Below are positions 8,106 through 58,232 of a DNA stretch of 64,000 nucleotides, one piece after another. The notes beneath the pieces were generated by a model that saw nothing but the letters and a program-made list of their open reading frames with translations, made no database searches and was not told where the DNA came from. The DNA is from Antedon mediterranea (taxonomy: Eukaryota; Animalia; Echinodermata): the NCBI RefSeq assembly GCF_964355755.1, contig NC_092672.1, positions 25,240,437-25,304,436 of the forward strand. The letters run 5' to 3'. How positions within the stretch are numbered: the first letter of the stretch is position 1; every line of letters starts with the position of its first letter. The position numbers and the translations under genes are program-made.

Positions 8106-8573
8106 CTTTAAAAAAAAACAAACATTGTTGTTGTTTTTGTAGTAATTTTGTTGTTGTTAGTAATTTTTTATTGTACAAATCAATGCCGTAATTGTAGTAG
8201 TAGTAATAGTAGTAGTGATAATAATAATAATTAAACGTTTCATTATTTCTATTTATAATTTATTGTACAAATCAATGCAATTTTAACGTTGCGTCTACCT
8301 CAATATAATAGTAACAACGAATTCATTAAGAAAACTAAAAATTGTAGTGTAGTAATAATCAATTCAATGCCGCAATTTGTAGTAATAGTAGTGATAATAC
8401 AATTAAACGTTTGAAAGAAAAAAAAAATATTGTGTTTTTTCTCTCTTCCAACGCGATGACGACGACGACGACAGAATTTTATGTGATTGTGAGAATGTTG
8501 ATGAAGAAATAAAGAGAGAGAGAGAGAGACATGGATACGGTTTGCTTAGACACCCATGGATATTGACACCGTC

Positions 8574-24279: not shown

Positions 24280-27200
24280 ATGAGTAAATCTGAGAGTACA
24301 GCCGATGATCTACTGCCATGTGAATTATGGCCGGGCAGTCGAATTACGGACGATATTGTGTTTGGTGAACCCATGCACATCATGTGCGTCGAGTTGAAAT
24401 CGTTTGAAATACCGACAAACTCGCTGCGCAATTGCTCCCCGCATACGTACATAATGATGATGGTGTTGTTGAGAAAAGCGTTACAGTTGCACTGCAACGA
24501 TGAACAGCACGCACTGGTGTGCTCTCTTATTGAACCTAGTCGCATCGTGGATGAAACGGTTCGGGGTAAGGTGTCGTGCGGTTACGTGTTCTGGTTGATC
24601 TTCCCACGACGTTTGCACAAAATGTTACAGTACGTTGTCAAGTCCATACTGTTGATAAACAACGGATACCTGCCAGCATGGGACACAACATTCTTGACAG
24701 ACGTCCGATGCGAAATGTTTTCCGACAACGATCTTGATGATGATGATGATGATGATGACGACGATGATGATGATAATGAACCGAAACGTAAAAAGACAAA
24801 ACGTAAACGAAACGATTCAGCAACGGCGACAATAAAATATGCATTTAAACATTTCGATTGCCGATTGGGTCGTGGAACGTCGCAAATGAAACGAACCAAG
24901 ATAAATAGCTATGTTCCACACGTGACAGTGCTCGGGGATTTTGAAAGAAGCATTGAAAAATATTTCTGTTTAGACATACCGAAAATCGAAGGCAATCGAT
25001 TGCCCCCGACTGTTAGAGAACAAGATACAGCAGAGGCGTGGCAAAAGCGCGCAGATCTGTTTACACCAAAGACTCTTTTTTCGTCATCTAGACGTGCAAC
25101 TCATCGACGTGAGCTGACACGTTTGATTGCAAATGAATCGAGTAATGCGCTAACTCTCGATCAGTTGATGACAATTGCCGACAAAGAATTGAATCTACCT
25201 CCGACTCTTAAACTGTCTTTGCAACAGATTGATCCGAGAGTTATAATGAACGAAGGCGATAGTCGTTGTGTAAGCTTCCAACATATGAAAGCGTGGATAT
25301 TGGAACCTCACATGTACGAGGCGAATTATTTTTTGAAAAGACACTTTCCTGCACTTGAAAGTGATACGAACATTGGTAATACAAAATTGTTTGTTCACGC
25401 TATGCGCGATGATGCAGCGCAATTGGACGAAGACAAAATTTCGGCAATCGGAAAACTGTATGTAACCAACCAGAATCAGAACGAAGTGACCATAGACTCG
25501 AGGTACGTATTTTATAATTATCATCATCATCATCATCATCATCACCACAACACAAATTGTAGTGTGCGTGTTTTACTTTTGATTTATAATTGTTTTCGTT
25601 TTGTTTTTTGTTTTTTTTTTTTCTTAATAGGCATTTATACGGTGAAAAATACACGGCAAAGAATCCGGGCATAGTGATGATGAGAAAGATTTTTCACAAC
25701 TTGCAATTGACTCCGGAAAGATACCGTGACAAGACTGTCGGCAAAATTTTCTTTGACATGTACACGCAAGTGCATATGGGAAGACACGTGCAAATGAGCG
25801 AAGTAATAACGCAATCGTATGCCGATATGTGGGATACCGAGATGAAGGGTTGGTGTATGAACGCGTCTAGACACAGTGACGGCAGTTTTGTTCCATTCGT
25901 ATACGAAGAGGAAACTGACGTGAAAATATCGATAGGTTATCGATATCTTTTGAACATGGTGGCTCTGATAGGTAATGTGGCCGGTGTGTCTAACGCTAAA
26001 GGTGAACTTTTGTATATTTTACTGTCGGCTATACGTATCGTATGCCCACACGATGCGATGGCCATGCACGCCATTCTGGTTGGACCTCCCGGTACGGGTA
26101 AAACGTCTGTGATGGTAGCCGCTAAATCTGTAATCGGTAACGCTTACTCAGACGACGTTACTTACCGAACACAGAAAGCCGTGCTCGTCGATAATGAGCG
26201 AAAGTACAAAAATTCAAAAAAAATACGCTTCATGAACGAATTTGTGCCACCGTCGTCTGGATCTAAAAGCGATAAGAATCCGTTGTCAATTGAAAGCAGT
26301 CAAGAAGCGGCAATAATGAAAGAGGAACTCGATTCCGGCTGTACGCGCACCGAACGAACCGAGAAGGTAACGGATCCGAACACGGGAACCACTCGACACG
26401 GTGTTCGAACCGTAATCAACGTTTGCGATAATGCCACCATAATGGCCATGAACGAAAAAAACTTGTGTAACTCGTTAAACGAACGAGTTGTCACTTTTGA
26501 CGTGGCACCCAGTGGTGTTGTCAACGTGCCCAAGAAAATGGAGGGATACGAGAAGGAATTGGATCGTTTAAAAATTCGAACGCAATTCGGCGCTCTGCGC
26601 CACAAAGTAATGGAACATGTACGGTTGGCAGAGTGCGGTCTGTATCCACGTCGATCGGAAGGAGATTCGTACAAAGACGATCGTATGCTACTGTTGACTT
26701 GCGATAGAATATCTGTCGAATTGGAAAGGCAAGGAGTCCGATTCGGATTCGCCACAGAAACTAGAACCATCAATAAACTCATCGACCTGGCACGTTTGTG
26801 CGCCTTTCACAATGCAGTGATTCAAGTGAACGGCTGTCCGTTACAAAGTCTGCACGCCAATACACCTCGATTACCGAACGAGAACACTTGTTGTCTCAAT
26901 TCAAGAATCATAGCCAAACATCAACGGTGGCTGATGCAACAGGACATGAAGCGACTACACGACATGGTAATGTCCGAGGCGCAGCCGGATCCTGCTGATA
27001 TTTTGTTTGCATTTTCGTTAATGTGTCCGATGCCACAGAACGAACTGATCATCGTGAGAACGATAGCGGATCAGTTGATTGATCCGTCTCATGATCCCGT
27101 TCATCGAGATGGTGAAACTTACTTTGAATTGACGTGCAGGAGCGAAGAGGCGCTTCTGTCCATTTTAGAGCGCAAAACGGGTGTTGCTCGCAAACAATGT

Positions 27201-28637
27201 AAGGAAATATTGTTGGCTATGCACAGTGGACGGAGTAAGTTGTTTCGAAAAATGGACGATAACGGACAAAAACAGCTTCTGTTCAAATGTAGCGAGGCAA
27301 CGGAAGCTCATCTTTCGTCACATGCAAACGAGTACCGTGAAATATCGGACGTGATGATGGCAGGAATGTGCAATGCAAAACAGTACAGGGGAAAACATTA
27401 CATATACGTTATGCTCAATGGAAAACTTACACAAGCCGCACGCTTCTTGTCTCATTTGCCCGTCTTCGCTCGACATATGTACTGGGGCCAGTCAAACTCT
27501 CAAGATCCCAAATCCAGCATCAATTATCTAGGATCGGTGCCGAAAAAGTTTACCAACGAAGAAAGATACTGGATAAAAATAAATTTAGATTTTCACGAGA
27601 CCCGACTGGCGTACGTTAGGAAACTCGCAATCCAATCGTGTGTGAGTGGAGACTGCGACGAAAACGGATCAATTGCGGTCGGTGTTGACGTGAAAGAGAT
27701 TGCCGACAGTTTAAGGGTGTTGAAATGCAGATCATATGACGGTAGCAGAGATAGACTACCGATGCCACCGCCGGTGATGAACAACGATCACACGTGCAGA
27801 TTGGTATTGGAAACGTCGAACGCTCGAGCCTTTATGGTACACGTTAGCGTCTTTTTGCCACAACATAGACGTTTGAAAAAAATACTCGAATTGTGCACAA
27901 AGGTTGTGCTCGAAGATAAAAACGCGTGCCGAGGTAATCGAATACGCGTTCTGGTAAATGACGAGTTCGAGGCGGATGAGCTGAGAAACGGTGTGAATTT
28001 GCTAACAAACGACTTGAGACACTTGATCAATTCTTCTTCGATCATCTCGGAAACACCACCACCGAACGTATTCTTTCACGTAAATCTGTTGACGTTGAAT
28101 TCATTGGAAGACGCGTGTAAGCATTACAAAGTGAAAGCCGGCGAATCAATGATCAAGAGTGTATTGGAAAAGTGCGTGTTTAAAAATATGACTGAACGTA
28201 AAACCATCATGTACGTGGATCGTAGTACAAGAGATGTGTTTCAGACGTTAGACATTCAGCAATTGGCCGAAAAGAACGGCGGTAGTCTACCGGTACACAA
28301 GTGTAAAAATCCGTATCTGACACAAACGCTTCGAAATCCAACAACCGAGGTAGTAGATCGTGATAGATTAAGATTCAAGTTAGAAGAACCGCAATTTCTT
28401 GAAGCCGAACCGTCGCACGTTCAACGACGAAAAGCATGGATTAGAATGTTGTCCGATGGTACGGAGATTAAACTGAGAGAACGATTTGGACACGACGTGG
28501 ACACTTATTTACGCCACATAAGACTCGTAGAAGATGCAATTATAGAAAAGGACAAACTGCACGCATTCAGACCACTGGTTTACAAGACTGGTGAAAAGAA
28601 ACTTTCACCGTGTACGTGCTCAAAACAAACGTTATGA
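24280..28637 (+). CDS. Large AAA+ (MCM-like) helicase, two exons (24280-25502, 25631-28637), ~1409 aa
   Basis: A GTACGT...TTCTTAATAG intron at 25503-25630 joins the 467- and 1015-aa ORFs in frame (DSR|HLYG). Walker A LVGPPGTGKT, Walker B-like FMNE, AIMKEELDSG, sensor-1 TIMAMN, Arg finger SLNERV. Confidence 0.78.
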
Positions 28638-29264: not shown

Positions 29265-31929
29265 GAGACTCAAGAACTAACCATTCAGCTGGCTTACAAT
29301 CTATCGATACCATAACAGTATTAGTAATTTATCAAAAACTATATAGGGGCGCAATATCGGTAAATATAGAATCTAGGATTGGATTTACGACTAGGCGCGT
29401 AGAGGAAGCTTGTTCAAATTGTTAGTATACCAAAATGATTATATATCAAAACGAATTACTCTATCACACATATTCGGGATAACAATTAAAAATATTTCTT
29501 TAAAGCTTTGTGACCGGTTCCGGAGACCGGTGTATACACTGACCGACGGTGATACAGACACACGACTAGGCGCGTAGAGGCAGCTGGTTGAAATTGTTAG
29601 TATACCAAATGATTATATATCGAAACGAATGATAGAATCGATGGAGATGAAATTCATAAAATACGCTTAATATATTAAACTATAATAATAATAATAATAC
29701 ACATTAAACATATTTCTTTAAAAAATTAATTGACCCTGACTCTTTGGGACCGGTGTATACATTTACCGACGGTGTCGCTTATATCCATCATATTGCCGAG
29801 ACGGTTTTATTGAAACACTAAAGTAACTCACGATGGAATTACACCCGTTTGTGTATTTCATGATCATCATTCGAAAACCATACGCAAATTAAACAGGGTA
29901 GGAGGAAGAGGAGGCACGATATATTCAATACGAATTTAAAAGCGCGCACCACACATACACATCAGTGTAATCGACAATCATTCATCGGTTTCGTTGTTTG
30001 TTGACAAATCGCGTGTAGTTAACCTTAACTATGGTCAATAAAGAAGATGGTGAGTAAAACAAATATTAAATATATATATATATATATGTGTGTGTATCAA
30101 ATCAATTCTCGAACCCTAGCCTAATGCTACAGCGTTACATTACGAGACTCAACAACTAACCATTCAGCTGGCTTACCATCTATCGATACCATAACATTAT
30201 TAGTAATTTATCAAAAACTATATAGGGGCGCAATATCGGTAAATATAGAATCTAGGATTGGATTTATGACTAGGCGCGTAGAGGCAGCTGGTTGAAATTG
30301 TTAGTATACCAAAATGATTATATATCGAAACGAATCACTCTAACACACATATTCGGGATAACAATTAAAAATATTTCTTTAAAGCTTTGTGACCTGGTGT
30401 GTACACTGACCGACGGTGATACATGCACACGCCCTACCCGCATTTCTATTGTAATCATCGATAAAAGCAATGCAGACCGATTATAATATTGTTACAATGC
30501 AGTGTTTTAATTTGGAAATTAAATTCCGTTTCTACATAGTCGAATCTAAATTAATAAGGAGAGAAGGAGAGGGAGAGAAACCTAAATAGAATTTAAAACA
30601 TAGCATTTTGATTTTAAAATGTGATGATAGAATCGATGGAGATGAAATTTATAAAATACGCTTAATATATTAAACTATAATAATAATAATACACATTAAA
30701 CATATTTCTTAAAAAAATTAATTGACCCTGACTCTTTGGGACCGGTGTATACATTTACCGACAGTGACGCTTATTTCCATGATATTGCAGAGACGGTTTT
30801 ATTGAAACACTAAAGTAACTTACGATGGAATTACACCCGTTTGTGTGTTTCATGATCATCATTCAAAAACCATACGCAAATTAAACAGGGTAGGAGGAAG
30901 AGGAGGCACGATATATTCAATACGAATTTAAAAGCGCGCACCACACATACACATCAGTGTAATCGACAATCATTCATCGGTTTCGTTGTTTGTTGACAAA
31001 TCGCGTGTAGTTAACCTTAACTATGGTCAATAAAGAAGATGGTGAGTAAAACAAATATTAAAAAAATATATATATGTATCAAATAAATTCTCGAACCCTA
31101 GCCTAAGGCTACAGCGTTACATAACGAGACTCAAGAACTAACCATTCAGCTGGCTTACAATCTATCGATACCCTAACAGTATTAGTAATTTATCAAAAAC
31201 TATATAGGGGCGCAATATCGGTAAATATAGAATCTATAGGATTGGATTTACGACTAGGCGCGTAGAGGAAGCTTGTTCAAATTGTTAGTATACCAAAATG
31301 ATTATATATCGAAACGAATTACTCTATCACACATATTCGGGACAACAATTAAAAATATTTCTTTAAAGCTTTGTGACCGGTTCCGGTGACCGGTGTATAC
31401 ACTGACCGACGGTGATACAGACACACGACTAGGCGCGTAGAGGCAGCTGGTTGAAATTGTTAGTATACCAAATGATTATATATCGAAACGAATGATAGAA
31501 TCGATGGAGATGAAATTTATAAAATACGCTTAATATATTAAACTATAATAATAATAATAATACACATTAAACATATTTATTAAAAAAATTAATTGACCCT
31601 GACTCTTTGGGACCGGTGTATACATTTACCGACGGTGTCGCTTATTTCCATCATATTGCCGAGACGGTTTTATTGAAACACTAAAGTAACTCACGATGGA
31701 ATTACACCCGTTTGTGTATTTCATGATCATCATTCGAAAACCATACGCAAATTAAACAGGGTAGGAGGAAGAGGAGGCACGATATATTCAATACGAATTT
31801 AAAAGCGCGCACCACACATACACATCAGTGTAATCGACAATCATTCATCGGTTTCGTTGTTTGTTGACAAATCGCGTGTAGTTAACCTTAACTATGGTCA
31901 ATAAAGAAGATGGTGAGTAAAACAAATAT

Positions 31930-31976
<47 letters not shown>

Positions 31977-34934
31977 CAAATCAATTCTCGAACCCTAGCC
32001 TAATGCTACAGCGTTACATTACGAGACTCAAGAACTAACCATTCAGCTGGCTTACAATCTATCGATACCATAACATTATTAGTAATTTATCAAAAACTAT
32101 ATAGGGGCTTAATATCGGTAAATATAGAATCTAGGATTGGATTTACGACTGGGCGCGTAGAGGCAGCAGGTTCAAATTGTTAGTATACCAAAATGATTAT
32201 TAATCGAAACGAATCACTCTATCACACATATTCGGGATAACAATTAAAAATATTTCTTTAAAGCTTTGTGACCTGGTGCGTACACTGACAGACGGTGATA
32301 CATGCACACGCCCTACCCGCATTTCTATTGTAGTCATCGATAAAAGCAAAGCAGACCGATTATAATATTGTTACAATGCAGTGTTTTAATTTGGAATCTA
32401 AATTCCGTTTCTACATAGTCGAATCCAAATTAATAAGGAGAGAAGGAGAGGGAGAGAGAGAGAGAAACCTAGATAGAATTTAAAACATAGCATTTTGATT
32501 TTAAAATATGATGATAGAATCGATGGAGATGAAATTTATAAAATACGCTTATATTAAACTATAATAATAATAATACACATTAAACATATTTCTAAAAAAA
32601 AAGTAATTGATCCTGACTCTTTGGGACCAGTGTATACATTTACCGACAGTGACGCTTATTTCCATCATATTGCAGAGACGGTTTTATTGAAACACTAAAG
32701 TAACTCACGATGGAATTACACCCGTTTGTGTGTTTCATGATCATCATTCGAAAACCATACGCAAATTAAGCAGTGTAGGAGGAAGAGGAGGCACGATATA
32801 TTCAATACGAATTTAAAAGCGCGCACCACACATACACATCAGTGTAATCGACAATCATTCATCGGTTTCGTTGTTTGTTGACAAATCGCGTGTAGTTAAC
32901 CTTAACTATGGTCAATAAAGAAGATGGTGAGTAAAAAAATATTAAAAATATATATATATATGTATCAAATCAATTCTCGAACCCTAGCCTAATGCTACAG
33001 CGTTACATTACGAGACTCAACAACTATATAGGGGCGCAATATCGGTAAATATAGAATCTATAGGATTGGATTTACGACTAGGCGCGTAGAGGCAGCTGGT
33101 TGAAATTGTTAGTATACCAAAATGATTATATATATCGAAACGAATTACTCTAACACACATATTCGGAATAACAATTAAAAATATTTCTTTAAAGCTTTGT
33201 GACCTGGTGCGTACACTGACCGACGGTGATACATGCACACGCCCTACCCTTATTTCTATTGTCATCATCGATAAAAGCAATGCAGACCGATTATAATATT
33301 GTTACAATGCAGTGTTTTAATTTGGAATCTAAATTCCGTTTCTACATAGTCGAATCCAAATTAATAAGCAGAGAAGGAGAGGGGCAGAGAGAGAGAGAGA
33401 GAAACCTAGATAGAATTTAAAACATAGCATTTTGATTTTAAAATATGATTATAGAATCGATGGAGATGAAATTTATAAAATACGCTTATATTAAACTATA
33501 ATAATAATAATACACATTAAACATATTTCTAAAAAAAAAGTAATTGACCCTGACTCTTTGGGACCGGTGTATACATTAACCGACAGTGACGCTTATTTCC
33601 ATCATATTGCAGAGACGGTTTTATTGAAACACTAAAGTAACTAACGATGGAATTACACCCGTTTGTGTATTTCATGATCATCATTCAAAAACCATACGCA
33701 AATTAAGCCGGGTAGGAGGAAGAGGAGGCACGATATATTCAATACGAATTTTAAAAGCGCGCACCACACATACACATCAGTGTAATCGACAATCATTCAT
33801 CGGTTTAGTTGTTTGTTGACAAATCGCGTGTAGTTAACCTTAACTATGGTCAATAAAGAAGATGGTGAGTAAAACAAATATTAAATATATATATATATAT
33901 GTATCAAATCAATTCTCGAACCCTAGCCTAATGCTACAGCGTTACATTACGAGACTCAAGAACTAACCATTCAGCTGGCTTACAATCTATCGATACCCTA
34001 ACAGTATTAGTAATTTATCAAAAACTATAATAGGGGCGCAATATCGGTAAATCTAGGATTGGATTTATGACTAGGCGCGTAGAGGCAGCTGGTTGAAATT
34101 ATTAGTATACCAAAATGATTATATATCGAAACGAATTACTCTAACACACATATTCGGAATAACAATTAAACATATTTCTTTAAAGCTTTGTGACCTGGTG
34201 TGTACACTGACCGACGGTTATACAGACACACGCCCTACCCTTATTTCTATTGTAATCATCGATAAAAGCAATGCAGACCGATTATAATATTGTTACAATG
34301 CAGTGTTTTAATTTGGAAATTAAATTCCGTTTCTACATAGTCGAATCCAAATTAATAAGGAGAGAAGGAGAGGGAGAGAAGATTCCGTTTCTACATAGTC
34401 GAATCCAAATTAATAAGGAGAGAAGGAGAGAGAGAGAGAGAGAGAGAGAAACCTAGATAGAATTTAAAACATAGCATTTTGATTTTAAAATGTGATGGTA
34501 GAATCGATGGAGATGAAATTTATAAAATACGCTTAATATATTAAACTATAATAATAATAATAATACACATTAAACATATTTCTTTAAAAAATTAATTGAC
34601 CCTGACTCTTTGGGACCGGTGTATACATTTACCGACAGTGACGCTTATTTCCATCATATTGCCGAGACGGTTTTATTGTAACACTAAAGTAACTCACGAT
34701 GGAATTACACCCGTTTGTGTATTTCATGATCATCATTCGAAAACCATACGCAAATTAAACAGGGTAGGAGGAAGAGGAGGCACGATATATTCAATACGAA
34801 TTTAAAAGCGCGCACCACACATACACATCAGTGTAATCGACAATCATTCATCGGTTTCGTTGTTTGTTGACAAATCGCGTGTAGTTAACCTTAACTATGG
34901 TCAATAAAGAAGATGGTGAGTAAAACAAATATTA

Positions 34935-34969
<35 letters not shown>

Positions 34970-35910
34970 CAAATCAATTCTCGCACCCTAGCCTAATGCT
35001 ACAGCGTTACATTACGAGACTCAAGAACTAACCATTCAGCTGGCTTACAATCTATCGATACCATAACATTATTAGTAATTTATCAAAAACTATATAGGGG
35101 GCGCAATATCGGTAAATATAGAATCTAGGATTGGATTTACGACTAGGCGCGTAGAGGCAGCTTGTTCAAATTGTTAGTATACCAAAATGATTATATATCA
35201 AAACGAATTACTCTAACACACATATTCGGGATAACAATTAAAAATATTTCTTTAAAGCTTTGTGACCTGGTGTGTACACTGACCGGCGGTGATACATACA
35301 CACGCCCTACCCTTATTTCTATTGTCATCATCGATAAAAGAAAAGCAGACCGATTATAATATTGTTACAATGCAGTGTTTTAATTTGGAAATTAAATTCC
35401 GTTTCTACATAGTCGAATCTAAATTAATAAGGAGAGAAGGAGAGGGAGAGGGAGAGAGAGAGAGAGAGAGAGAGAAACCCAAATAGAATTTAAAACATAG
35501 CATTTTGATTTTAAAATATGATGATAGAATCAATGGAGATTAAATTTATAAAATACGCTTATATTAAACTATAATAATAATAATACACATTAAACATATT
35601 TCTTAAAAAAAAGTAATTGACCCTGACTCTTTGGGACCGGTGTATACATTTACCGACAGTGACGCTTATTTCCATCATATTGCCGAGACGGTTTTATTGT
35701 AACACTAAAGTAACTAACGATGGAATTACACCCGTTTGTGTGTTTCATGATCATCATTCGAAAACCATACGCAAATTAAGCCGGGTAGGAGGAAGAGAAG
35801 GCACGATATATTCAATACGAATTTTAAAGCGCGCACCACACATACACATCAGTATAATCGACAATCATTCATCGGTTTCGTTGTTTGTTGACAACGCGTG
35901 TAGTTAACCT
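29265..35910. repeat. Tandem array of seven ~0.9-1.1-kb units in two structural variants
   Basis: The unit start GAGACTCAA(G/C)AACTA recurs at ~29265, 30143, 31126, 32023, 33012, 33951 and 35015. Units 1 and 3 share a deletion and CCGGTTCCGG. Confidence 0.93.
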
Positions 35911-36002
35911 TCATCGCAAAGTATAAAAATCGACCAGTATGGAGTTTTAGTTTCAAACTTTAATTGGAAGTTGTAGTGAATTCTTGTAGCAATAAAGTAA
36001 TC

Positions 36003-40522: not shown

Positions 40523-42163
40523 ATGGCTGAATTTCTACCCCTGTACAAGACGCAAATAACAACGAGAAAGTATGAAAGTTTACCGGCTGTAAACGGCAAG
40601 TACGGCGCTATTCGAATTCAAGAAAGTGGGAAACATGGCAAAGTGAAGACAGCTAAAGAAAACGTGCACGTTGTGATAAAGACATTGTATGATTTCACGG
40701 CCAGCCACACGTCTACGCTCGAGCATGAAGACGTGAACTTGTCGGGAAACAAGGAAGTTTTGGTTCTTGCACACTTAAAACAAACGGACGCGGCTCGAAT
40801 GTGTACGCCTCGTCTGCTCGAAGTTTCTTATCGGCGTAACATCGCAATATCAATCACAATGAGAAACGAAGGATGTAATCTGTACAGGCTACGCTATTGT
40901 TACAAGCTTCTGCCTTGCGTGAAAACGCTTTCGTTACATGTTTGCAAAGCGTTGACGTTTCTCGAAAACGCAGGTGTGGTTCACAACGACATAACAATCG
41001 AGAACGTGGCGTATAGTCGATTAGATAATCGATTTCGTATAATAGACTTTGGTTCTGCCGAGTTTACAAAGCACGGTGCAAGCACGTTTGGCGTTTCTGT
41101 GAAAGAGAGACATGGCCATCGGTGTTTGGGTATCGTTCGAACCGGTTCCATGGCGTCAAAGTACTTGCCACCGGGAAGTCGACTACGCTTTTCCGACACC
41201 GAACCAAACTATTCGTGCGTCAGGAGTGAGGAGAAACTGACAAGGATACCTTTCAGGGACATAAGTCATGTGATGTCAGACAGACGAGTGAAGATGTTGC
41301 GTCGAAATTCGGACGTTTACAGCGCCTCGATGAGTGTGGCTTTAATGTTTTATGATGACAACAATCGGAATAAGTTTGAGACGCAAAGCGACTATTGTGA
41401 TTTAAAAAAGGACAAATTTGCGTACAACAATTTGATTAAGGTGTGTAGACATTCGGTAGAACTACGTGGTCCGATGAACGAACGTGATCTCCAGTTTTGG
41501 TACACGCACGTGAATCCGGATAGATCACTGACCGACGCATTTTCACTGTCGCATTGTTCCAGCAGCAAGAAATACAATTCATACATCGATAGATTCAGTC
41601 CGTTCTTGGGAGTCGAGTTTACGGACGCTTTAAAAGAATGTTTGAACCCTGTACCGGAACGTCGATGTGTATCGAAACTAGAAAAGGCGGCTTCGAAACA
41701 ACACGACTCAACTGTATTGTTTGGCGGTAAACAGTTTTCGTTGAAACGCGTTGAAGATAGATTGGTGTATCTAGTACACGAACATGACATTTCGATTGGA
41801 GACATCAAATTTGGCAACGAAAGCCCGAATCGAAACGTTGTGGTGGTGGAACATATGCACATCATGTCAAACGATCGGAAACTGATCATGTCGTTTCTCA
41901 TGTCGGCTCTCAGACTGAGTCAATATATTGCAACTACAGTAGAATTCTGCGTGTTCAGCGACGAGGACATTAAACATTTGTCGAATTCATTCGGCACCAA
42001 CGCTAAATTAAAATTACACGATGGAATACGCCGAATGTATGTGAAAGTCAACGACGACGTACCGCTCATAGTAAGCGTCGAAAAATCCAGATCCGAATAT
42101 AATACGGTGGTGGTGGCCGATGATGAAGAAGAGGTTTCATCTGCGAAACGACCATGTAGATGA
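40523..42163 (+). CDS. Viral Ser/Thr protein kinase with a C-terminal GNAT-like domain
   Basis: NGKYGAI, VVIK, NKEV, VVHNDITIENV, IIDFGSAE, SDVYS, LNPVPERR. Confidence 0.85.
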   Translation: MAEFLPLYKTQITTRKYESLPAVNGKYGAIRIQESGKHGKVKTAKENVHVVIKTLYDFTASHTSTLEHEDVNLSGNKEVLVLAHLKQTDAARMCTPRLLEVSYRRNIAISITMRNEGCNLYRLRYCYKLLPCVKTLSLHVCKALTFLENAGVVHNDITIENVAYSRLDNRFRIIDFGSAEFTKHGASTFGVSVKERHGHRCLGIVRTGSMASKYLPPGSRLRFSDTEPNYSCVRSEEKLTRIPFRDISHVMSDRRVKMLRRNSDVYSASMSVALMFYDDNNRNKFETQSDYCDLKKDKFAYNNLIKVCRHSVELRGPMNERDLQFWYTHVNPDRSLTDAFSLSHCSSSKKYNSYIDRFSPFLGVEFTDALKECLNPVPERRCVSKLEKAASKQHDSTVLFGGKQFSLKRVEDRLVYLVHEHDISIGDIKFGNESPNRNVVVVEHMHIMSNDRKLIMSFLMSALRLSQYIATTVEFCVFSDEDIKHLSNSFGTNAKLKLHDGIRRMYVKVNDDVPLIVSVEKSRSEYNTVVVADDEEEVSSAKRPCR

Positions 42164-45899: not shown

Positions 45900-47132
45900 A
45901 TGAATAAAATAGTGCATACAGGCGCGATGGAATGTTATGAAAGACGATTGGCCACGTATGAGTTTTGGATTGCGGGACACGTGATATCGCCTACATCGTT
46001 AGCAATGTCGGGCTTCTTTTATACGGGGCAAGACGACCGAGTAGAATGTTACCGTTGTCACGGTAAACTTTCGAGATGGAACGCCGGAGCAGATGCCGAT
46101 ACAGAGCACAAGAAACACTTCCCGTTGTGCAAACTGATGTCATGTGGTAACAGCAGTCCTTTAATCGGCAGTAAAACACATTTGGTCGACTCAAACTCGC
46201 ATATGGTCAGATTGTCGACTTTTAAAAACTGGCCATTTGGACACATCGTATCGGCGTGCACTTTAGCAAAGTCTGGATTTTATTACAGGTCATGCTGTGA
46301 CGTAGTCGAATGCTTCTCTTGCAACGGTTTACTTGAGCGATGGAAAAGAGGAGTGAATGTCGACGAAGAGCATAGAAAACATTTTCCGTTGTGTAAGTTC
46401 ATGTTATCCACCGCGGCCACCGTGGCGACCCCCACCACCACCACCACCAATAGGCAACGGGCAATGCATCCACAATACGCTCTTTTGAATGTTCGAAAAA
46501 TGACGTTTACTACAGTATGGGCTACCGATCATACGCCGAACGGAATAGCCGAGGCCGGATTCTTTGCAATCAATCGGGACCAGGCAATGTGTTTCCATTG
46601 CGGCGGTGGACTGAAAGACTGGCAATTAGACGATAATCCTTGGATCGAGCATGCAAAGTGGTTTCCGTTCTGCAATTGGTTGAGAATCGAAAAAGGTTTT
46701 CCTTTCATCGAGACGGCTCTTATTTCGTCAAAAAGTCCGTTTGATATTGCAATGCGCTCTGAAATCGTTGTGAAAGTTTTAGAAATGGGTTTTGACATGC
46801 AACATGTATCGACTACTGTAAACGATCACGTGAAGAGAACCGGTGGAAACTTTACGTCTAGCCTTGAGCTTCTGAACGCTGTCACGATTCCAGTGAACGA
46901 TAAACCAACAGTGGTAGAAGAGGAAAAAGTGGAGGAAGAAGAAGATTTGCAATCTGTTGTGCGCGATTTACGCGAAAAAAAAACATGTAAGATATGCATG
47001 GACGCTGACGTTTGTGTTCTTTTCATTCCATGTTCGCATTTGGTCGCCTGCTGGTCGTGTTCAAACAGTTTGCTGTTGTGTCCGATTTGTCGAGGTAAAA
47101 TAGATAAACGTCAGAAAGCCATTCTCTCTTAA
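45900..47132 (+). CDS. iap: Inhibitor of apoptosis (3 BIR, UBA-like, RING)
   Basis: Three BIRs (RLATY..GFFY..C..C..W..H..C), VLEMGF UBA-like, C-terminal RING CKICMDADVCVLFIPCSHLVAC..CPICR. Confidence 0.97.
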   Translation: MNKIVHTGAMECYERRLATYEFWIAGHVISPTSLAMSGFFYTGQDDRVECYRCHGKLSRWNAGADADTEHKKHFPLCKLMSCGNSSPLIGSKTHLVDSNSHMVRLSTFKNWPFGHIVSACTLAKSGFYYRSCCDVVECFSCNGLLERWKRGVNVDEEHRKHFPLCKFMLSTAATVATPTTTTTNRQRAMHPQYALLNVRKMTFTTVWATDHTPNGIAEAGFFAINRDQAMCFHCGGGLKDWQLDDNPWIEHAKWFPFCNWLRIEKGFPFIETALISSKSPFDIAMRSEIVVKVLEMGFDMQHVSTTVNDHVKRTGGNFTSSLELLNAVTIPVNDKPTVVEEEKVEEEEDLQSVVRDLREKKTCKICMDADVCVLFIPCSHLVACWSCSNSLLLCPICRGKIDKRQKAILS

Positions 47133-47158: not shown

Positions 47159-48823
47159 ATGCACGGTCAAAAGAAGATTTTATCGTTTGGCAAATTGGAT
47201 AATACAATCGATCCGTTGGTGACTGTGAACAGCCGAGGTTCTTTTGGCGTTGTCCATTCGATAGAGTCTGGTTTAGTTGAAAAATTACATTGTGGCAATC
47301 AGAATAGCAGCGATGCACGAGTACGTTTAACATTCAACAAGGAAACTTTCATTTTAGCTTACGCAAACTACTTTGACAGATTGAAACGGTACACGCCGCA
47401 GATATGTCAGGCAGTCGTCGATTCAGGAGTGACTCAATGTTTGCGCATGACAAACGAAGGTTTTGACTTGTTTACAATACGGATGACAATGCAAATGTTG
47501 CCGTGCGTGCTTACACTTTATCGACATGTTGGCGAGGGGCTTGCTTTTCTGGACAAGATAGGAGTCGCACATAACGACATAACCATCAGGAATGTGACGT
47601 ACAACAGACGGCAGGGCCGATTCAAGTTTATTGATTTTGGTTCGGCCGAAGTACATCGTCGAAAAATGATCGAATTTGAATCGAGCAAAAAGGTCGGCTT
47701 ATTTGGAGGTGTTGGATGCGTTCACGGAGAATCGATAGCCTCCGCGTACATACCATCGGACATGCCGATCTACACAATGGACGTTGACACTGGATTCGGA
47801 GGAGTGCGCAGCGTAGAAAGACTAGTGTCCATAGGGTATCGAGATATCAGTCACGTGATGACAGACAGAGTGGTGAAACTGCTGAATAGTGAATCGGACG
47901 TGTTTTCTGCCGCAATGACCGTGGTGACGGCCACAATGTACAACGAATGCCAACAATTTGATGAGGTGCAATACACAGACATGAAAAGACTTGGAGACAC
48001 TGGGCAAAAGTCGAAGATATTACACACTCTTGTCGGCCTCTGCAGACAATTTGTGAAGATAAGAGGTGGTATGACAAAATTCGAAACGGCTTACTGGTAC
48101 ACGTACGTAAACTCTGACATGAACATATGTAAGGCTCTGGAATGCCAGCCGTCCGATGAACTGCCTATACTGGATCGATATCGAAGTGTTCTCGGTGAAC
48201 GTTTTATCGATCGGCTTGTTGACAATTTAAATCCAATACCGGAGAACAGAAAGTCGTTTCTAGTGTTGAAGAACGACGTTCAATCACAGCGCACCAACAT
48301 CGAATCTATGGACATGTTATCGGTGAAGATGGTTGCGCAGAATGTCGTTCATTTGTTTTACAGAGACTTTCAAACGCTAGTTGGAGATGTGGTGTTTCAA
48401 GAAAGTGGCGCAAACATAACAGTTGATCATATGAACCTGTTGATTGACAACGCAGACGGCACGTTAGCGGTCGTGTTTGTTCGATCAGCATTGAATCTGT
48501 ATCGAAAACCTTCGTCATCGTCGTCGTCGTCATCGTCGTCGTCGGTAGAGTTTAGAGTTTACAACGACAGAGAACGTCGATTCTTGGTGTCATTGTTTCC
48601 AACGCATCGACAAACGACAGACGGTCATTTAGTTGTCGAGATTGAAAAGGATTCGTCAATCATTCTTCCTCTTGGAGTGAAGCAGCAAACGGTCACCGAT
48701 AGGGTTTTCAAAGAGATGTTAGGAAACAAAATAAAATCGATACACACGCCTATACGAGAAAACTCATGGTGCACGTCCAAGTCGAATCTACGTGTAAAAC
48801 AGCTGCCATCAATTTCTTCCTAG
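47159..48823 (+). CDS. Second viral Ser/Thr kinase (paralog of 40523-42163) with a GNAT-like C-terminus
   Basis: SRGSFGVV, VEK, NKET, AHNDITIRNV, FIDFGSAE, RDISHVMTDR, SDVFS, LNPIPENR. Confidence 0.85.
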   Translation: MHGQKKILSFGKLDNTIDPLVTVNSRGSFGVVHSIESGLVEKLHCGNQNSSDARVRLTFNKETFILAYANYFDRLKRYTPQICQAVVDSGVTQCLRMTNEGFDLFTIRMTMQMLPCVLTLYRHVGEGLAFLDKIGVAHNDITIRNVTYNRRQGRFKFIDFGSAEVHRRKMIEFESSKKVGLFGGVGCVHGESIASAYIPSDMPIYTMDVDTGFGGVRSVERLVSIGYRDISHVMTDRVVKLLNSESDVFSAAMTVVTATMYNECQQFDEVQYTDMKRLGDTGQKSKILHTLVGLCRQFVKIRGGMTKFETAYWYTYVNSDMNICKALECQPSDELPILDRYRSVLGERFIDRLVDNLNPIPENRKSFLVLKNDVQSQRTNIESMDMLSVKMVAQNVVHLFYRDFQTLVGDVVFQESGANITVDHMNLLIDNADGTLAVVFVRSALNLYRKPSSSSSSSSSSSVEFRVYNDRERRFLVSLFPTHRQTTDGHLVVEIEKDSSIILPLGVKQQTVTDRVFKEMLGNKIKSIHTPIRENSWCTSKSNLRVKQLPSISS

Positions 48824-51184: not shown

Positions 51185-53428
51185 TCAAGCGCAGAAAGCA
51201 TGTGCCCGTTTACAAAGGGCATCGTGACAGCGTACAATAAACAGTATTCTTTTATCTTCTTCTTGCACGCTGCTAAAAACGTGCTCGTTCTTTCTAACCT
51301 GACGTTCTTCTTGGCTCGTTGTGCATACAACTTTAGCGCAACAGTCCACATTTGTTGTCTGCTGCTGCTGCTCATATGTTTTCGCGCGAGAGAGATGCAA
51401 TGGAACGTTTGCAATCATAGCGTACATCTTATCCATTCGTTCTTGTATACTTATGATATTGTTGTTGTAAGAAGAAGAAACGAGAACGCCCAGCACGGAA
51501 TCTGTATCAATGCGACAACGTTTTCTTAGACCTCTTAGTAGATCGGTTGCGCCCACTGTCGAATTGCAACAGGCAGCAGCCAACGGATGATACGCCACTC
51601 CGTTATGTCGGATGTAGTAGGGCACTTGTCGATACAGTCCAAAGGCGATGCACATTTGCTTGTACGCGGCAGAGCTAGTCTCTTTCTTGGACACTCTACG
51701 CATCATTAGCTCGTCTACTTGCTGCGAGTCTTTCAGTTTACAGACAAGTGTTTGCATGATGTCGATGCACGTATCTATGGCCGCGTTGCAATCGCGTTCC
51801 TTCAGAGCAGTTTCAACAAAGTTTTTATCCAGTTCTGTAAGTAATGGTTCAACGTCACATTTTAAGGTGAACATGCCAGTGGTGCTGATGTTCCCGTCGG
51901 CGTGCAAACACGCGTACCTTTTCTTCTTGTTGGTCAATAACAATCGACAGAGTGTCTCTCTGTGTACAAATTTCTGCCAGCTATCACCGCCGCCGCCGCC
52001 GCCGCCGCCTATAACCTGCGCAAATCTTTCTTCCAAACGTTTTCTGCTGCTGCCACAATCATCAGCTAGTTTCACAAACAATGAATCCGTGTCTCCGTAC
52101 AGAACGTGAGCTCCGTTATCTTCGGCGCATTTCTTTAGACGACAAAGTTGCTGTCTGCATTTCGAGGTCACGTAGTTGTACAGTTGAACACTGCCGGTAA
52201 TTACTAGACACCCTATGCATTCGTTGGCGGCTCGTTTGTAGGCAGTCGCGTGCTGCGGATGAGCATCTCGCCCCAACACCAGTCTCTTCATGATAGACGG
52301 CAAAAGACCTTCGCGTACGTTCCGATCGACAAAAGAACCGTCCTCACACATTGTTGAATAGTCTACATTCTTGTCTACTATAAAGCGTGGATAGTAGGAT
52401 TTGAAATCGTACACTTCTACGTGTTCGTGAATATCGGGTACAGTTTCCAGTACAAGACCACCTTTAACGTCTCGCGTCGATTTTCTACGACGAGTGTTTG
52501 GGAAAACAGTTTGTCGACGTATAGCCTCGCGGCAAAGCAGGGATGAGAGCACCTGCGTTCTCGATGCGTTCGGGAACACTCCGACGAGTCTAGACACGTT
52601 CATCAGTGTATCAATCAATTTTTTCGATTCTACCTGTTTGCAATATTCTGGCAAAAGAGACGCGTCGTCTTGCATGGCCCCGTCCGATACGCTGGCCATC
52701 AACTCGAAACAGGATCGTCTACCAACGTACTCGTACAGGGAGTTTGGATCACAACATAACGTGCGCGCATCGTTCGTGGTGTCTAGACAAATGGGCATGC
52801 TATCGATCGGCACGTTCAATGTCTTACATCGTGCTCGTATGCTCGCTCTCACCCATTCTCCGTGATAGACGAGCACGTCAACTGAATCGAAAGATTTTAT
52901 GATTCCAAGCAGTATGCTTCGTTCATTGTCGTCTGTTGTTGCTGCTTGTACAACACTCGTACCGTCGTAAGACAGTGCCGCAATGATTCGTCCGTATACG
53001 TTCAATCTAATGATCAAGTAGAGAACGGACAGTTTTACAGGATGTATTTTTTCGCATTCAAAGTGCACTTGCTCATCATAGTGTACGTTCGAAACGAATC
53101 CATGCTCATTCAACGAGTATCGATGCCATGCACATCCGTGTACACCGACTGCACACTGAGCGTCCAGATCGTCGTCGACAGATGGAAGATTGCCGAAAGC
53201 GTTTATCATTCTCTTTCTGTTGTTTGATACAACTTTTCTGTATTTTCGATTCGATGCTACGTATTTGTCACCTCTGCTCATTACACAGTCACCGCACACG
53301 TCATCTTCAACGTATTCGACGAATTCAACATTGCTTGTCTGCAGCGACAAACGTCGTCCGATCGGGTCTGTACAACGAATTGTCAGTTTTTTCTGGCAGT
53401 ATTTCACTCGTGTAAAGTAGGCATGCAT
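51185..53428 (-). CDS. polB: Family B DNA polymerase, delta-like, compact (747 aa), exonuclease degenerate
   Basis: KGGLVLE...YDFKSYYP, REGLLPSIM, YKRAANECIG, VLYGDTDSLFV, LLLTNKKKRYA. Confidence 0.93.
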   Translation of the reverse strand: MHAYFTRVKYCQKKLTIRCTDPIGRRLSLQTSNVEFVEYVEDDVCGDCVMSRGDKYVASNRKYRKVVSNNRKRMINAFGNLPSVDDDLDAQCAVGVHGCAWHRYSLNEHGFVSNVHYDEQVHFECEKIHPVKLSVLYLIIRLNVYGRIIAALSYDGTSVVQAATTDDNERSILLGIIKSFDSVDVLVYHGEWVRASIRARCKTLNVPIDSMPICLDTTNDARTLCCDPNSLYEYVGRRSCFELMASVSDGAMQDDASLLPEYCKQVESKKLIDTLMNVSRLVGVFPNASRTQVLSSLLCREAIRRQTVFPNTRRRKSTRDVKGGLVLETVPDIHEHVEVYDFKSYYPRFIVDKNVDYSTMCEDGSFVDRNVREGLLPSIMKRLVLGRDAHPQHATAYKRAANECIGCLVITGSVQLYNYVTSKCRQQLCRLKKCAEDNGAHVLYGDTDSLFVKLADDCGSSRKRLEERFAQVIGGGGGGGGDSWQKFVHRETLCRLLLTNKKKRYACLHADGNISTTGMFTLKCDVEPLLTELDKNFVETALKERDCNAAIDTCIDIMQTLVCKLKDSQQVDELMMRRVSKKETSSAAYKQMCIAFGLYRQVPYYIRHNGVAYHPLAAACCNSTVGATDLLRGLRKRCRIDTDSVLGVLVSSSYNNNIISIQERMDKMYAMIANVPLHLSRAKTYEQQQQTTNVDCCAKVVCTTSQEERQVRKNEHVFSSVQEEDKRILFIVRCHDALCKRAHAFCA

Positions 53429-53431
53429 GTT

Positions 53432-54241
53432 TTAGTGCACGGGACGTAGAAAGAGTTTCTTACAAAGACCGTGCTGGGTTGCGGCCACCTGATTGCTTTT
53501 AATTGTTCCGTTGGCAAGAGTCAACATGGACATTAAATCGTGTTTTGTTGAATACGAATGAAACACTTTACAGAGTGACTGAATAAACTTATACTGACGG
53601 TCCAGGGTCGAATACGTAATGGATACGTCACAGCCTCTCGGCAACGATTGAGGCTGCACGACAATTGTTTCGTCTACTTGACAAGCTTGTATGAAAAAGA
53701 GTTTAGGTTTTCCGTTCAACGTTTCACATTTTTCGAAACAGTCGACGATTTCAGTGACATTGACAGTACCGTGAGTGAGAATGCACACGGCAATGCAATC
53801 TAGTCTAGAGTGATCGTATTCACTTAGACGTGTGAGCAACGTCTTCGTTTCTATGGACGTCAGATTGTGATTAACAGACAGTTGGAAGCCGAGATAATTG
53901 AAGACATTTTCAAGCGCTGCACAATCATCATCATCATCATCATCATCATCATAATTGTTGATGATTACTGTGAAACCGCGCGGATTTGAAGTCATCTTGT
54001 ACTCGTTCAATCCGCCATCATGGATAGAATCGATAAATGCATTGTACGCAAAACTACCTCGTGTTTCGATGTCGATCAACAATCGTTCACGAGCGTTCGT
54101 GTTAGATAAAATTGCATCCATCTTCTTGGTCGAATACACGCCTTTCTGTACCAATTTCTCCATTACTTCTCTAATGCTGTTTATGTTACGAATAAAATAG
54201 AGACGATTTTGACGCAATTTTTTCTTGTCTGATCTGTTCAT
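53432..54241 (-). CDS. CARD-containing caspase homolog with deleted substrate-binding loops
   Basis: CARD-like LRQNR...LLIDIETRGSFAYNAFIDS; YKMTSNPRG..IINN, CILTHG, GKPKLFFIQACQ, FIQSLC, LCKKLFL. Confidence 0.9.
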   Translation of the reverse strand: MNRSDKKKLRQNRLYFIRNINSIREVMEKLVQKGVYSTKKMDAILSNTNARERLLIDIETRGSFAYNAFIDSIHDGGLNEYKMTSNPRGFTVIINNYDDDDDDDDDCAALENVFNYLGFQLSVNHNLTSIETKTLLTRLSEYDHSRLDCIAVCILTHGTVNVTEIVDCFEKCETLNGKPKLFFIQACQVDETIVVQPQSLPRGCDVSITYSTLDRQYKFIQSLCKVFHSYSTKHDLMSMLTLANGTIKSNQVAATQHGLCKKLFLRPVH

Positions 54242-56018: not shown

Positions 56019-56369
56019 ATGAATCGATGTACGCAAATGGATGTTTGCAGATTCTTTTCGGAAAAGTACAGAGTAGATGACTTTGTAGAGAACGATGTGA
56101 ACGGAGTCGTGTCTATGGCCACCGATCGATACGTTAAGAGTGTTGACAGTCTATGCGCTTCTTTGAAGAACTTGAAATGTCAGCGAAATGCAACAGTTAA
56201 AGTTACATCACCAGCACCACCATCATCATCATCATCATCGTTGAATGTTGATCATCTTGCATCACCACCGCCACTGGCTGAGATGCAGATACCGTATTGG
56301 TTCGATGAACTGGAGCGTTCGATGAAAGGAAAACGAACGTGGTTCAGTGTCAACTATCGCATTATGTAA
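56019..56369 (+). CDS. Small hypothetical protein
   Basis: ATG at 56019, divergent from 55984, filling the gap to the protease 3' end. Confidence 0.5.
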   Translation: MNRCTQMDVCRFFSEKYRVDDFVENDVNGVVSMATDRYVKSVDSLCASLKNLKCQRNATVKVTSPAPPSSSSSSLNVDHLASPPPLAEMQIPYWFDELERSMKGKRTWFSVNYRIM

Positions 56370-57202
56370 TTCTGATGAGTAGCTTGCCAATAATTGAATC
56401 CGTCGTCTTTGAACGCAAACGATGCATCCACTGTCTGTGATGGTGGTGGTGGTGGTGGTGGAGGTGGGGCTAGCAGTTGTTTGCCCAACATTTCTGTAAG
56501 TTTCTCGAGACTGTTTATACGTTTTTCAAATTCATCGTCTGTGGTGGTGGCTGCTGCTGCTGCGGCGGCGGCGGCGGTGGGTTTAAGTTTTTTCTCTGGC
56601 GGTTCATTCGTTTCGTGTTTACGTTTTCTATTACCATGATCGTTCATTGTATTATTTTTGATTCGTTGTTCGACTGTTTTGAAGTAATCGTTGCAGACGT
56701 TAATCGTATTCTCGTTGTTTTTTGTCAACAATCGCTTGTGAATGTCTAGTATTTCGCTCAATGATGTAGCGTTTGTAACGTTCACTTGATCTTCCATTTT
56801 TGGAAAACGGCGCTTGAGCAAATCACCCAATTCGGTCTTGTTTGCCATGTTCAAGGTGGCATCATCGATGAGATCATTGGCGGCCTTAAACGAGGCGGCA
56901 ACGTCAATACCAGGATCCGTGTCCCATCGATCCGTCACCGCTTTAAAGTCTTTCATTTGCTTATTGTATTCAGGTCCGAGTCTTCCCTCCATCGTTTCTC
57001 TCAAACGGAGTATAAAGTCACCGAATTGTTCACGCAAGAGATCCACCTCTTCCTTGATTTCTTGTTTGTCTTTTACGCTGCTCTCTTCCTTGTCTTTCAA
57101 CAGCGAGAGTAGAGCATCGAGTTTTTCCGGTGGTAACGTGTTCGCCATATCTTTCACTACTTCCAATTCCGCCAGCAAATTTTCTTCCTTCTTCACAGAC
57201 AT
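56354..57202 (-). CDS. Predicted nested, in-frame scaffold gene (UL26.5-like), 282 aa
   Basis: In-frame ATG at 57202 just after the protease domain; TATAAA on the minus strand at 57244-57239. Confidence 0.55.
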   Translation of the reverse strand: MSVKKEENLLAELEVVKDMANTLPPEKLDALLSLLKDKEESSVKDKQEIKEEVDLLREQFGDFILRLRETMEGRLGPEYNKQMKDFKAVTDRWDTDPGIDVAASFKAANDLIDDATLNMANKTELGDLLKRRFPKMEDQVNVTNATSLSEILDIHKRLLTKNNENTINVCNDYFKTVEQRIKNNTMNDHGNRKRKHETNEPPEKKLKPTAAAAAAAAATTTDDEFEKRINSLEKLTEMLGKQLLAPPPPPPPPPSQTVDASFAFKDDGFNYWQATHQNYIMR

Positions 57203-57697
57203 TGCACCTTCTTTTTCCTCTTTTACTTTGCGACGACGTTTATATCCGAATCTTTTTTCTGCTGTACGTCTGGCGCTGCGCTCGTCACTACAGAACACGG
57301 CCACTGTACCTTTTCGTTGACCAGTCTCCACGAGAGAAACTTCAACGCATTTAGTGTGATCGGCGCGTCTGTAGCTGAGTGACAGACAGTTTAGATGCTG
57401 TGAGAATGGACTGCGTAAAAACGGTTTATTCGTGATCTCTATAAGAACGGCCACTGCACCTGTTCCTTCTTCGTGTGCGTCTGGATGTGTATTGTCTCGC
57501 CACCAATCTAGAACCGTACCGATGCCTCCCGATGAATGTATTCCAACACCGTTCTTACGTGCTTTCACGTGTTTCCATCGAACCGGCAATCCGATGAGTT
57601 TCCATCGATCTATCACGTCAGGCGTTACATCATATTCTTTGTCAACGACCACCGCTGTCACTTCTGTCACCACGTATCCGACAACGAAACGTTTCAT
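56354..57697 (-). CDS. Capsid maturation protease (assemblin/HK97 prohead protease fold) fused to scaffold
   Basis: GLPVRWKH (His), IGTVLDWW, LNCLSLSY (Ser), VEVSLVETGQRKGT (oxyanion G-x-R-x-G-T); helical C-terminal half ends TVDA|SFAF. Confidence 0.88.
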   Translation of the reverse strand: MKRFVVGYVVTEVTAVVVDKEYDVTPDVIDRWKLIGLPVRWKHVKARKNGVGIHSSGGIGTVLDWWRDNTHPDAHEEGTGAVAVLIEITNKPFLRSPFSQHLNCLSLSYRRADHTKCVEVSLVETGQRKGTVAVFCSDERSARRTAEKRFGYKRRRKVKEEKEGAMSVKKEENLLAELEVVKDMANTLPPEKLDALLSLLKDKEESSVKDKQEIKEEVDLLREQFGDFILRLRETMEGRLGPEYNKQMKDFKAVTDRWDTDPGIDVAASFKAANDLIDDATLNMANKTELGDLLKRRFPKMEDQVNVTNATSLSEILDIHKRLLTKNNENTINVCNDYFKTVEQRIKNNTMNDHGNRKRKHETNEPPEKKLKPTAAAAAAAAATTTDDEFEKRINSLEKLTEMLGKQLLAPPPPPPPPPSQTVDASFAFKDDGFNYWQATHQNYIMR

Positions 57698-58232
57698 ACC
57701 ACAATCGGTTCTTCTTTTTAGTATTTCTCTTCTTCTTATTCTTCTTCTTCTTCTTCTCCTTGCTCTTAATGTAGCGCATCGCTAAGGTGTATCTTTCTGT
57801 TTTCAAATGTGCCAAATCTGTTTTATCATCTTCCTCTATTATAACGTTTTGAACGGTTAACGTTTTCTCTTTCAGATCGACGACAGCTTCCATGTCGAAA
57901 GACATGCACAACAGTTGAACGGTGAACCAGTCTATGTGTTTGACGTCCATAAACACCGCCACGTCATCATCGATCACGACCGATGAACAAAACGGAGCTG
58001 TGCGTTTTGCCACCAATGCTATGCTCGGATGTGTTTTGTTACCAAACGATTGATGATCGTAGGGTATACCCAGCTTTGCTATTGCACAGTCGCATTGACT
58101 TTCACAAGAGAATCGTACCACACCTACAAGACGAGAACAGTCGATGCAACAATGCGTGCCATCTGGACACGATGCAAGTAGAATTCTCAAATCAAGACTC
58201 GATATATTACTTTGCATAACGTTCACTCTCAT
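57642..58232 (-). CDS. Hypothetical protein with a basic C-terminus
   Basis: ATG at 58232, Cys cluster, Lys-rich tail; overlaps the protease start. Confidence 0.6.
   Translation of the reverse strand: MRVNVMQSNISSLDLRILLASCPDGTHCCIDCSRLVGVVRFSCESQCDCAIAKLGIPYDHQSFGNKTHPSIALVAKRTAPFCSSVVIDDDVAVFMDVKHIDWFTVQLLCMSFDMEAVVDLKEKTLTVQNVIIEEDDKTDLAHLKTERYTLAMRYIKSKEKKKKKNKKKRNTKKKNRLWYETFRCRIRGDRSDSGGR

Follow-up and report, generated by a model that had tools for sequence, protein, structure and literature searches.

The locus analysed here raises the question of whether a long ORF within a 64,000 nt stretch of DNA (the window, meaning that whole stretch) encodes a herpesvirus-type capsid maturation protease fused to its scaffold, and whether its phage-like active-site motif marks it as intermediate between the maturation systems of phages and herpesviruses, as an earlier note on the sequence had proposed. 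We consider it quite probable that the ORF belongs to a divergent herpes-like virus, probably one infecting animals, and encodes its capsid maturation protease fused to the scaffold, with a nested gene for the scaffold and a matching cleavage scheme. The "phage-like" Glu has already been described in fish herpesviruses; the gene therefore follows an established design, here in an unfamiliar lineage, and is no missing link between phages and herpesviruses.

The fusion ORF (Table 1) matches the Pfam family Herpes_ORF28 with an E-value of 7.5e-7 and 29.1 bits, below the 40-bit cut-off. EVSLV, GQRKGT, TATAAA, V-D-A/S and the internal VAA/S (the slash marks the predicted scissile bond) all lie in the ORF where the earlier note had placed them. 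The TATAAA starts at 57244, 42 nt ahead of the in-frame ATG at 57202 that encodes Met166, close to the 40 nt announced; V-D-A/S (aa 423–426) stands 22 aa from the C terminus and is followed by F427, F429 and N-Y-W, and the second VAA/S is indeed internal (aa 266–269). An RKRK basic patch is a candidate nuclear localisation signal by analogy with pUL26.5. When the fusion protein was shuffled, [VL]xAS occurred at least twice in 2.3% of the shuffles and once within the last 35 aa in 1.6%, while a TATAAA with the first ATG in frame 30–50 nt later was found in 4.1% of shuffled controls anywhere and in 1.1% within codons 120–200. Since these single-sequence chance levels are 1–4%, a comparison with relatives was needed. 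At the 3' end, the gene is overlapped by a convergent 116 aa ORF (window 56019–56369, plus strand), and no AATAAA is present within 250 nt past the protease-scaffold stop.

Table 1. Features of the protease-scaffold locus, in window coordinates
Feature	Residues	Position	Strand	Remark
Protease-scaffold fusion ORF		56354..57697	(-)	447 aa, 50.8 kDa
Protease domain	aa 1-154	57236..57697	(-)	predicted assemblin-type beta-barrel
Putative catalytic histidine	His43	57569..57571	(-)	invariant 14/14
Putative nucleophile in L-S-L-S	Ser106	57380..57382	(-)	invariant 14/14
EVSLV	aa 119-123	57329..57343	(-)	Glu119, inferred third triad residue
GQRKGT	aa 126-131	57305..57322	(-)	inferred oxyanion loop, Arg128 kept
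TATAAA	codons Tyr152-Lys153	57239..57244	(-)	candidate internal promoter
Predicted nested scaffold ORF	from Met166	56354..57202	(-)	282 aa, 32.1 kDa, mostly helical (low-confidence model)
Internal V-A-A/S-F	aa 266-270	56891..56902	(-)	candidate cleavage site inside scaffold
RKRK basic patch	aa 357-360	56618..56629	(-)	candidate nuclear localisation signal
V-D-A/S	aa 423-426	56420..56431	(-)	predicted maturation site, A425 invariant 14/14
Aromatic C-terminal tail (N-Y-W)		56357..56419	(-)	predicted major-capsid-protein anchor
Upstream neighbour gene		57642..58232	(-)	slight overlap, conserved, 22% identity with the gene immediately preceding the L001 homologue

Homology searches returned 21 homologues of full length, whose names are all uninformative. 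In a tree of the 22 protease domains, unrooted by phage or herpes references, the window protein groups with nine others at a support of 90/95, which falls below the starred level. Eleven further homologues fall outside this clade and all match Pfam PF25720, three of them above its 40-bit cut-off; we call these 11 proteins the sister clade, ten of which group weakly (83/93) while P0025 is unplaced. The remaining protein, P0027 (E 0.32), is a weak match that stands apart on a long branch; its own protease-scaffold has a YK pair, a Met at +15 and H-x-A-S repeats. Fragments (P0005, P0006, P0018, P0033, P0034 and P0037), the 4542 aa weak match P0007 and cluster near-duplicates were left out of all counts. 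Besides the window, the analysis covered the DNA of one homologue locus, L001, which has four genes in common with the window. Directly after its protease, L001 carries ORFs of 308 and 1130 aa (L001:7284-11621), which from their size and position are likely the triplex and major capsid proteins. Neither has a meaningful Pfam or NCBIfam match, and for the 1130 aa ORF no PDB match was found and the Atlas neighbours are generic capsid-like only (0.90). Scans of viral contigs and a first metagenome scan gave no relatives, and the literature searched, with most subscription journals outside the search, gave no description of this clade, of the YK-TATA spacing or of a release-site loss.

The active site was assigned from conservation and spacing. 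H43, S106, S121, G126, R128 and A425 are unchanged in all 14 aligned proteins, Ser106 and the third triad residue are 13 residues apart in 21/21 scored proteins (P0027 outside the count), and Arg128, preceded by Gln127, stands nine residues past Glu119. Catalysis is thus likely to be carried out by His43-Ser106-Glu119 together with Arg128, with Gln in the oxyanion loop in place of the first Arg of the orthoherpes RR pair. Orthoherpesviruses have HVALC at the position of EVSLV. The earlier note had taken EVSLV for the HK97 form; the E-[IV]-S likeness holds, whereas the sequences are not identical, as HK97 gp4 reads EISVC-TFPAN, with no Arg and no G-x-R loop. Glu at the third position is a known state of fish herpesviruses: the AciHV-3 protease has H173/S226/E240/R249, with E240 and R249 matching Glu119 and Arg128 by spacing, and a figure legend in the same paper describes the triad as "H, S, E/H ... 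conserved across the order Herpesvirales" (PMC12031113); Teratorn ORF48 has the motif ECSLV, the legend of Fig. 4 reading "His-Ser-His/Glu" (PMC5601938). For comparison, the PrV protease is described with His128 and Arg136/Arg137 (PMC4498786), the Arg pair corresponding to Gln127-Arg128 by spacing. Within the family the third position is Glu in 20 proteins, Asp in one (P0010, DVSLV) and His in one (P0003, HVSLV), the last two being sisters nested among the Glu proteins of the window's clade (support 97/98). P0003, encoded at L001:5827-7260, may represent an independent origin of the Ser-His-His triad. Since Glu is both known from fish herpesviruses and readily changed, it is no marker of a phage-herpes intermediate.

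The earlier note had also called for a structure prediction to be set against assemblin and HK97 gp4. The AF2 model of the protease domain (28 aligned rows) has a pLDDT of 91.2 and a pTM of 0.88, and an assemblin fold was obtained: it aligns with the proteases of VZV (Z 12.9, rmsd 2.6, 126 aligned), HCMV (Z 11.6, rmsd 3.0, 129 aligned) and KSHV (Z 9.4, rmsd 2.5, 105 aligned), and among the 48,161 solved chains compared these three proteases only reach a Z of at least 8. The comparison with T4 gp21 gives Z 6.3 (rmsd 3.5, 107 aligned), a tie with an unrelated MCE domain. Foldseek against the PDB places herpes proteases in all top ranks (best E 2.9e-7), and in the viral library the named matches in ranks 1–18 are ortho-, allo- and malacoherpesvirus proteases, with the highest TM-score (0.71) for lake sturgeon herpesvirus; an abalone herpesvirus protein is also among the fold matches. 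Thus, the domain is predicted to be a herpes-type, assemblin-fold maturation protease. PDB sequence searches with the domain or its profiles gave no protease among their matches. A full-length model built on a two-sequence alignment (pLDDT 43, generic coiled-coil matches only) had been rejected in favour of the domain model. The alignments with assemblins stop at assemblin residues 171–194, so that the domain lacks an equivalent of the assemblin C-terminal helices; in the PrV protease, such helices build the activating dimer (PMC4498786).

These data bear directly on the proposal that the gene stands, in evolution, between the prohead proteases of phages and the assemblins of herpesviruses, with its Glu motif as the mark of this position. 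The Glu shared with HK97 gp4, a barrel as short as those of phage proteases and the presence of S78 and S77 prohead proteases among the ESM Atlas neighbours (0.92–0.93) speak for it. We nevertheless hold it to be very unlikely, because Glu is already recorded inside Herpesvirales (AciHV-3 and Teratorn, in the passages cited above), His and Asp are nested within the Glu family, and structural similarity favours assemblins over T4 gp21. The profile comparison with HK97 gp4, which lacks the G-x-R loop, found nothing (probability 0.5%). Pfam and PHROG scans of the domain gave no HK97-type (S78) match, and tblastn of 50,697 phage records returned a single match, at E 5.

The second component of the design is the nested scaffold gene. 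The Tyr-Lys pair is present in 21/22 family proteins, and a Met follows 10–16 codons past it in 20/22, against a chance of about 0.2 per sequence, the range having been picked after the data were seen and the homologues being related to one another. The stretch between YK and Met is itself only 8% identical between homologues. In L001 the YK codons again read TAT AAA and are followed 36 nt downstream by an ATG in frame; the codons spell TAT AAA in both loci with DNA, for which codon usage gives a chance of about 0.24 each. A spacing of 42 nt is plausible, since a TATA precedes the ATG by 31–81 nt in five other window ORFs. Another TATAAA, which the earlier note did not mention, lies at 56519 in the window and is followed by an in-frame ATG after 28 nt, and L001 has a second pair as well (aa 336); as these pairs lie at unrelated places, such motifs also arise by chance. 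The nested protease/scaffold design is published for PrV (PMC4498786) and for the alloherpesviruses SalHV-1 and AngHV-1 (PMC13030845, PMC3203048), and in OsHV-1 the nested scaffold has long-read and peptide support, the full-length fusion being expressed about 10-fold less than the nested scaffold transcript (10.1101/2024.05.03.592320). The nested gene design is known across Herpesvirales. Here, protease codons spell a TATA box from which the scaffold is probably expressed on its own as well; no RNA run is among the sequencing runs on record that carry the stretch.

Because TAT AAA rests on two loci, YK could also be kept for protein reasons, and the fusion would then have a maturation site and no internal promoter, its free scaffold arising from cleavage only. 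The Tyr could pack on the barrel, and herpes release sites carry a Tyr at P4, as in the PrV site YLQA-T (PMC4498786). We give this reading little credence, since the spacing between the F-G motif and YK varies, the distance from YK to the Met is kept across the poorly conserved linker, and nested transcripts have been shown in OsHV-1 (in the text cited above). Returning to the nested gene, we regard it and the C-terminal maturation site as well supported by the YK-Met spacing and by the presence of the site in every family protein. Together with the L001 DNA and the predicted fold, this supports the earlier suggestion that a protease of herpes type is fused to a scaffold for which a nested gene exists.

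For the maturation site, the last match to [VI]-x-A/[SGCA] was taken with its distance left free, and it lies 9–42 residues from the C terminus in 22/22 proteins, with Ser (15), Gly (5), Cys (1) or Ala (1) at P1'. The pattern fits a maturation site ahead of an aromatic anchor, with A425/S426 as the predicted cut, and the tail, which may bind the major capsid protein, is N-[YF]-W in 10/10 of the window's clade and mostly L-F-D-[LI] in the sister clade. The internal motif is [VI]xA/SF in 10/10 of the window's clade and [VI]DA/AF in 11/11 of the sister clade; A/[SA]F is found inside the scaffold in 21/22 proteins, in alignment columns that differ between the two clades. A UL26-type release site precedes the scaffold start (PMC4498786). 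When the YK-Met linker was scored, A/[SKH] was present in all 11 sister-clade proteins (A/S in eight), and a release site between protease and scaffold start was found in 0/10 of the window's clade; in the window protein the internal VAA/S lies 100 residues downstream of Met166. The simplest account of these patterns is a loss of the release site in the window's clade, with the internal site used in its place. The internal A/SF also starts a predicted helix, and its role may be structural.

From these elements a maturation scheme can be proposed. A long message would give the fusion, and the scaffold from Met166 would come from a shorter message, likely the more abundant of the two, driven by the TATA box at Tyr152-Lys153; both products would bind the major capsid protein via the aromatic tail and build the procapsid, and the protease would then cut V-D-A/S and free the scaffold from the shell. 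With no release site before Met166 in the window's clade, self-release is most likely to occur at the internal VAA/S, a step to which we give slightly better than even chances. Such a cut would yield a 30.6 kDa protease and would split free scaffold into pieces of 11.9 and 17.5 kDa.

The surroundings of the gene were considered next to its design. The window encodes a family B DNA polymerase, two kinases, an IAP, a CARD-caspase, a chloride-channel-like gene and a P-loop protein, in gene clusters of GC 0.42–0.48 that alternate with AT-rich, repeat-rich DNA of GC 0.29–0.36 and tandem duplications. IAP-like and chloride-channel genes occur alongside in amphioxus and oyster herpesviruses, as described in PMC2994540; with the cluster and repeat layout, this gene content suggests an animal host and possibly integration. 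The polymerase (window 51185–53428, minus strand) is short, at 747 aa, with an exonuclease part that looks degenerate or spliced, and its best sequence matches among solved structures are not herpesvirus polymerases. The 986 aa P-loop protein (25677–28637, plus strand) has GPPGTGKT followed by FMNEF and weak AAA matches only, and is possibly an AAA+/SF3-like replicative helicase. The IAP is intronless with three BIRs, UBA and RING (45900–47132, plus strand), and the CARD-caspase lies nearby (53432–54241, minus strand); with this pair, a single element would encode an inhibitor of apoptosis together with a caspase or decoy. The kinases (40523–42163 and 47159–48823, both plus strand) are paralogous and divergent, with a common C-terminal extension. 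A 2-kb duplication (26–2034 and 7318–9342, 97% identity) copies the 3' part of the gene at 6531–8105, and 29265–35911 is a degenerate satellite of 1–2 kb units, with AT-rich host-like DNA between the gene clusters. Among the 33 window proteins scanned, no other alloherpesvirus Pfam family was found; nor, in this partial genome window, were RNA polymerase subunits or a small-tower capsid protein, the features given for Mirusviricota in PMC10132985.

This layout, with no homologues in the window of the putative L001 capsid genes, would also fit an endogenous remnant in decay, with no present role in the assembly of capsids, as would a low-depth contig from run X8 that lacks one base near the start codon and may be an error. 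The ORF is intact with every motif present, and the stretch occurs in sequencing runs of five studies. Run X5 (record 3) further contains a second, 6.5-kb contig with a related protease (EISLV, corresponding to window 57297–57413), in which seven of the eight listed differences across the active-site motif are synonymous, as are 4/6 in the variant protease domain; the sample could contain another related virus, or another copy, from which the contig derives. Decay is in our view somewhat unlikely, and as it concerns present activity it is compatible with the preferred explanation of the design.

What is new in this virus-like gene is the lineage, the absent release site, the short barrel and a natural Glu/Asp/His series. 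A bolder proposal, which we hold only tentatively and regard as rather unlikely, is that an undescribed animal herpes-like lineage rewired maturation: the release site would have been lost, a minimal 154-residue barrel would be freed by a cut inside the scaffold, helices 166–268 would stay on the enzyme as a substitute for the assemblin dimer helices, and the Glu to His change would have occurred independently of orthoherpesviruses (P0003, with its Asp sister). If this were true, the "unique" Ser-His-His triad could arise more than once. The data extend the pan-herpesvirus nested protease-scaffold design to a further, unassigned lineage and offer a simple gene-finding signature, Tyr-Lys codons spelling TATA with a Met some 13 codons downstream. 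The natural Glu, Asp and His variants of this family make direct tests of the third triad residue possible, and the presence of a release site in one clade and its absence from the sister does the same for the release step.

Among known systems, the phage prohead proteases (HK97 gp4, S78; T4 gp21, S77) belong to the same ancient fold family and have E-[IV]-S; they differ in the weaker T4 gp21 match (Z 6.3), in T-F-P-A-N of HK97 gp4 where T-G-Q-R stands here, and in having no eukaryotic nested promoter. The malacoherpesvirus OsHV-1 resembles the window in ORF107, a protease with a nested scaffold like the nested ORF predicted here, and in ORF57, which matches a chloride channel, a gene type common to both; unlike the 447 aa protein, ORF107 has 689 aa, and no sequence-level similarity was detected. 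With UL26/UL26.5 of HSV-1 and PrV and UL80/80.5 of HCMV (MEROPS S21), the gene shares the predicted barrel, a predicted 3'-coterminal nested scaffold, a candidate A/S maturation site near the C terminus and the G-x-R-x-G-T loop. Unlike S21 assemblins, it has Glu119 for the second His, one Arg (Gln127-Arg128) in place of two, and a predicted barrel that ends before the C-terminal helices; unlike UL26, it has a conserved A/SF inside the scaffold and lacks a release site in the stretch from the protease to the start of the scaffold. The earlier view that UL26/UL26.5 is reproduced is supported for the fusion, the nested ORF and the C-terminal site and fails for the release-site position, as VAA/S lies downstream of the scaffold start. 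The alloherpesviruses (IcHV-1 ORF28 family, PF25720) include AciHV-3 AFA98, SalHV-1 ORF24, AngHV-1 ORF57/57.5 and Teratorn ORF48. The window protein differs from them in a PF25720 score of 29 against 40 bits and in having no sequence-level match to a named virus, and is like them in its His-Ser-Glu triad, the single Arg nine residues past Glu, the protease fused to scaffold, the Pfam match itself and the best TM-score, 0.71 to lake sturgeon herpesvirus.
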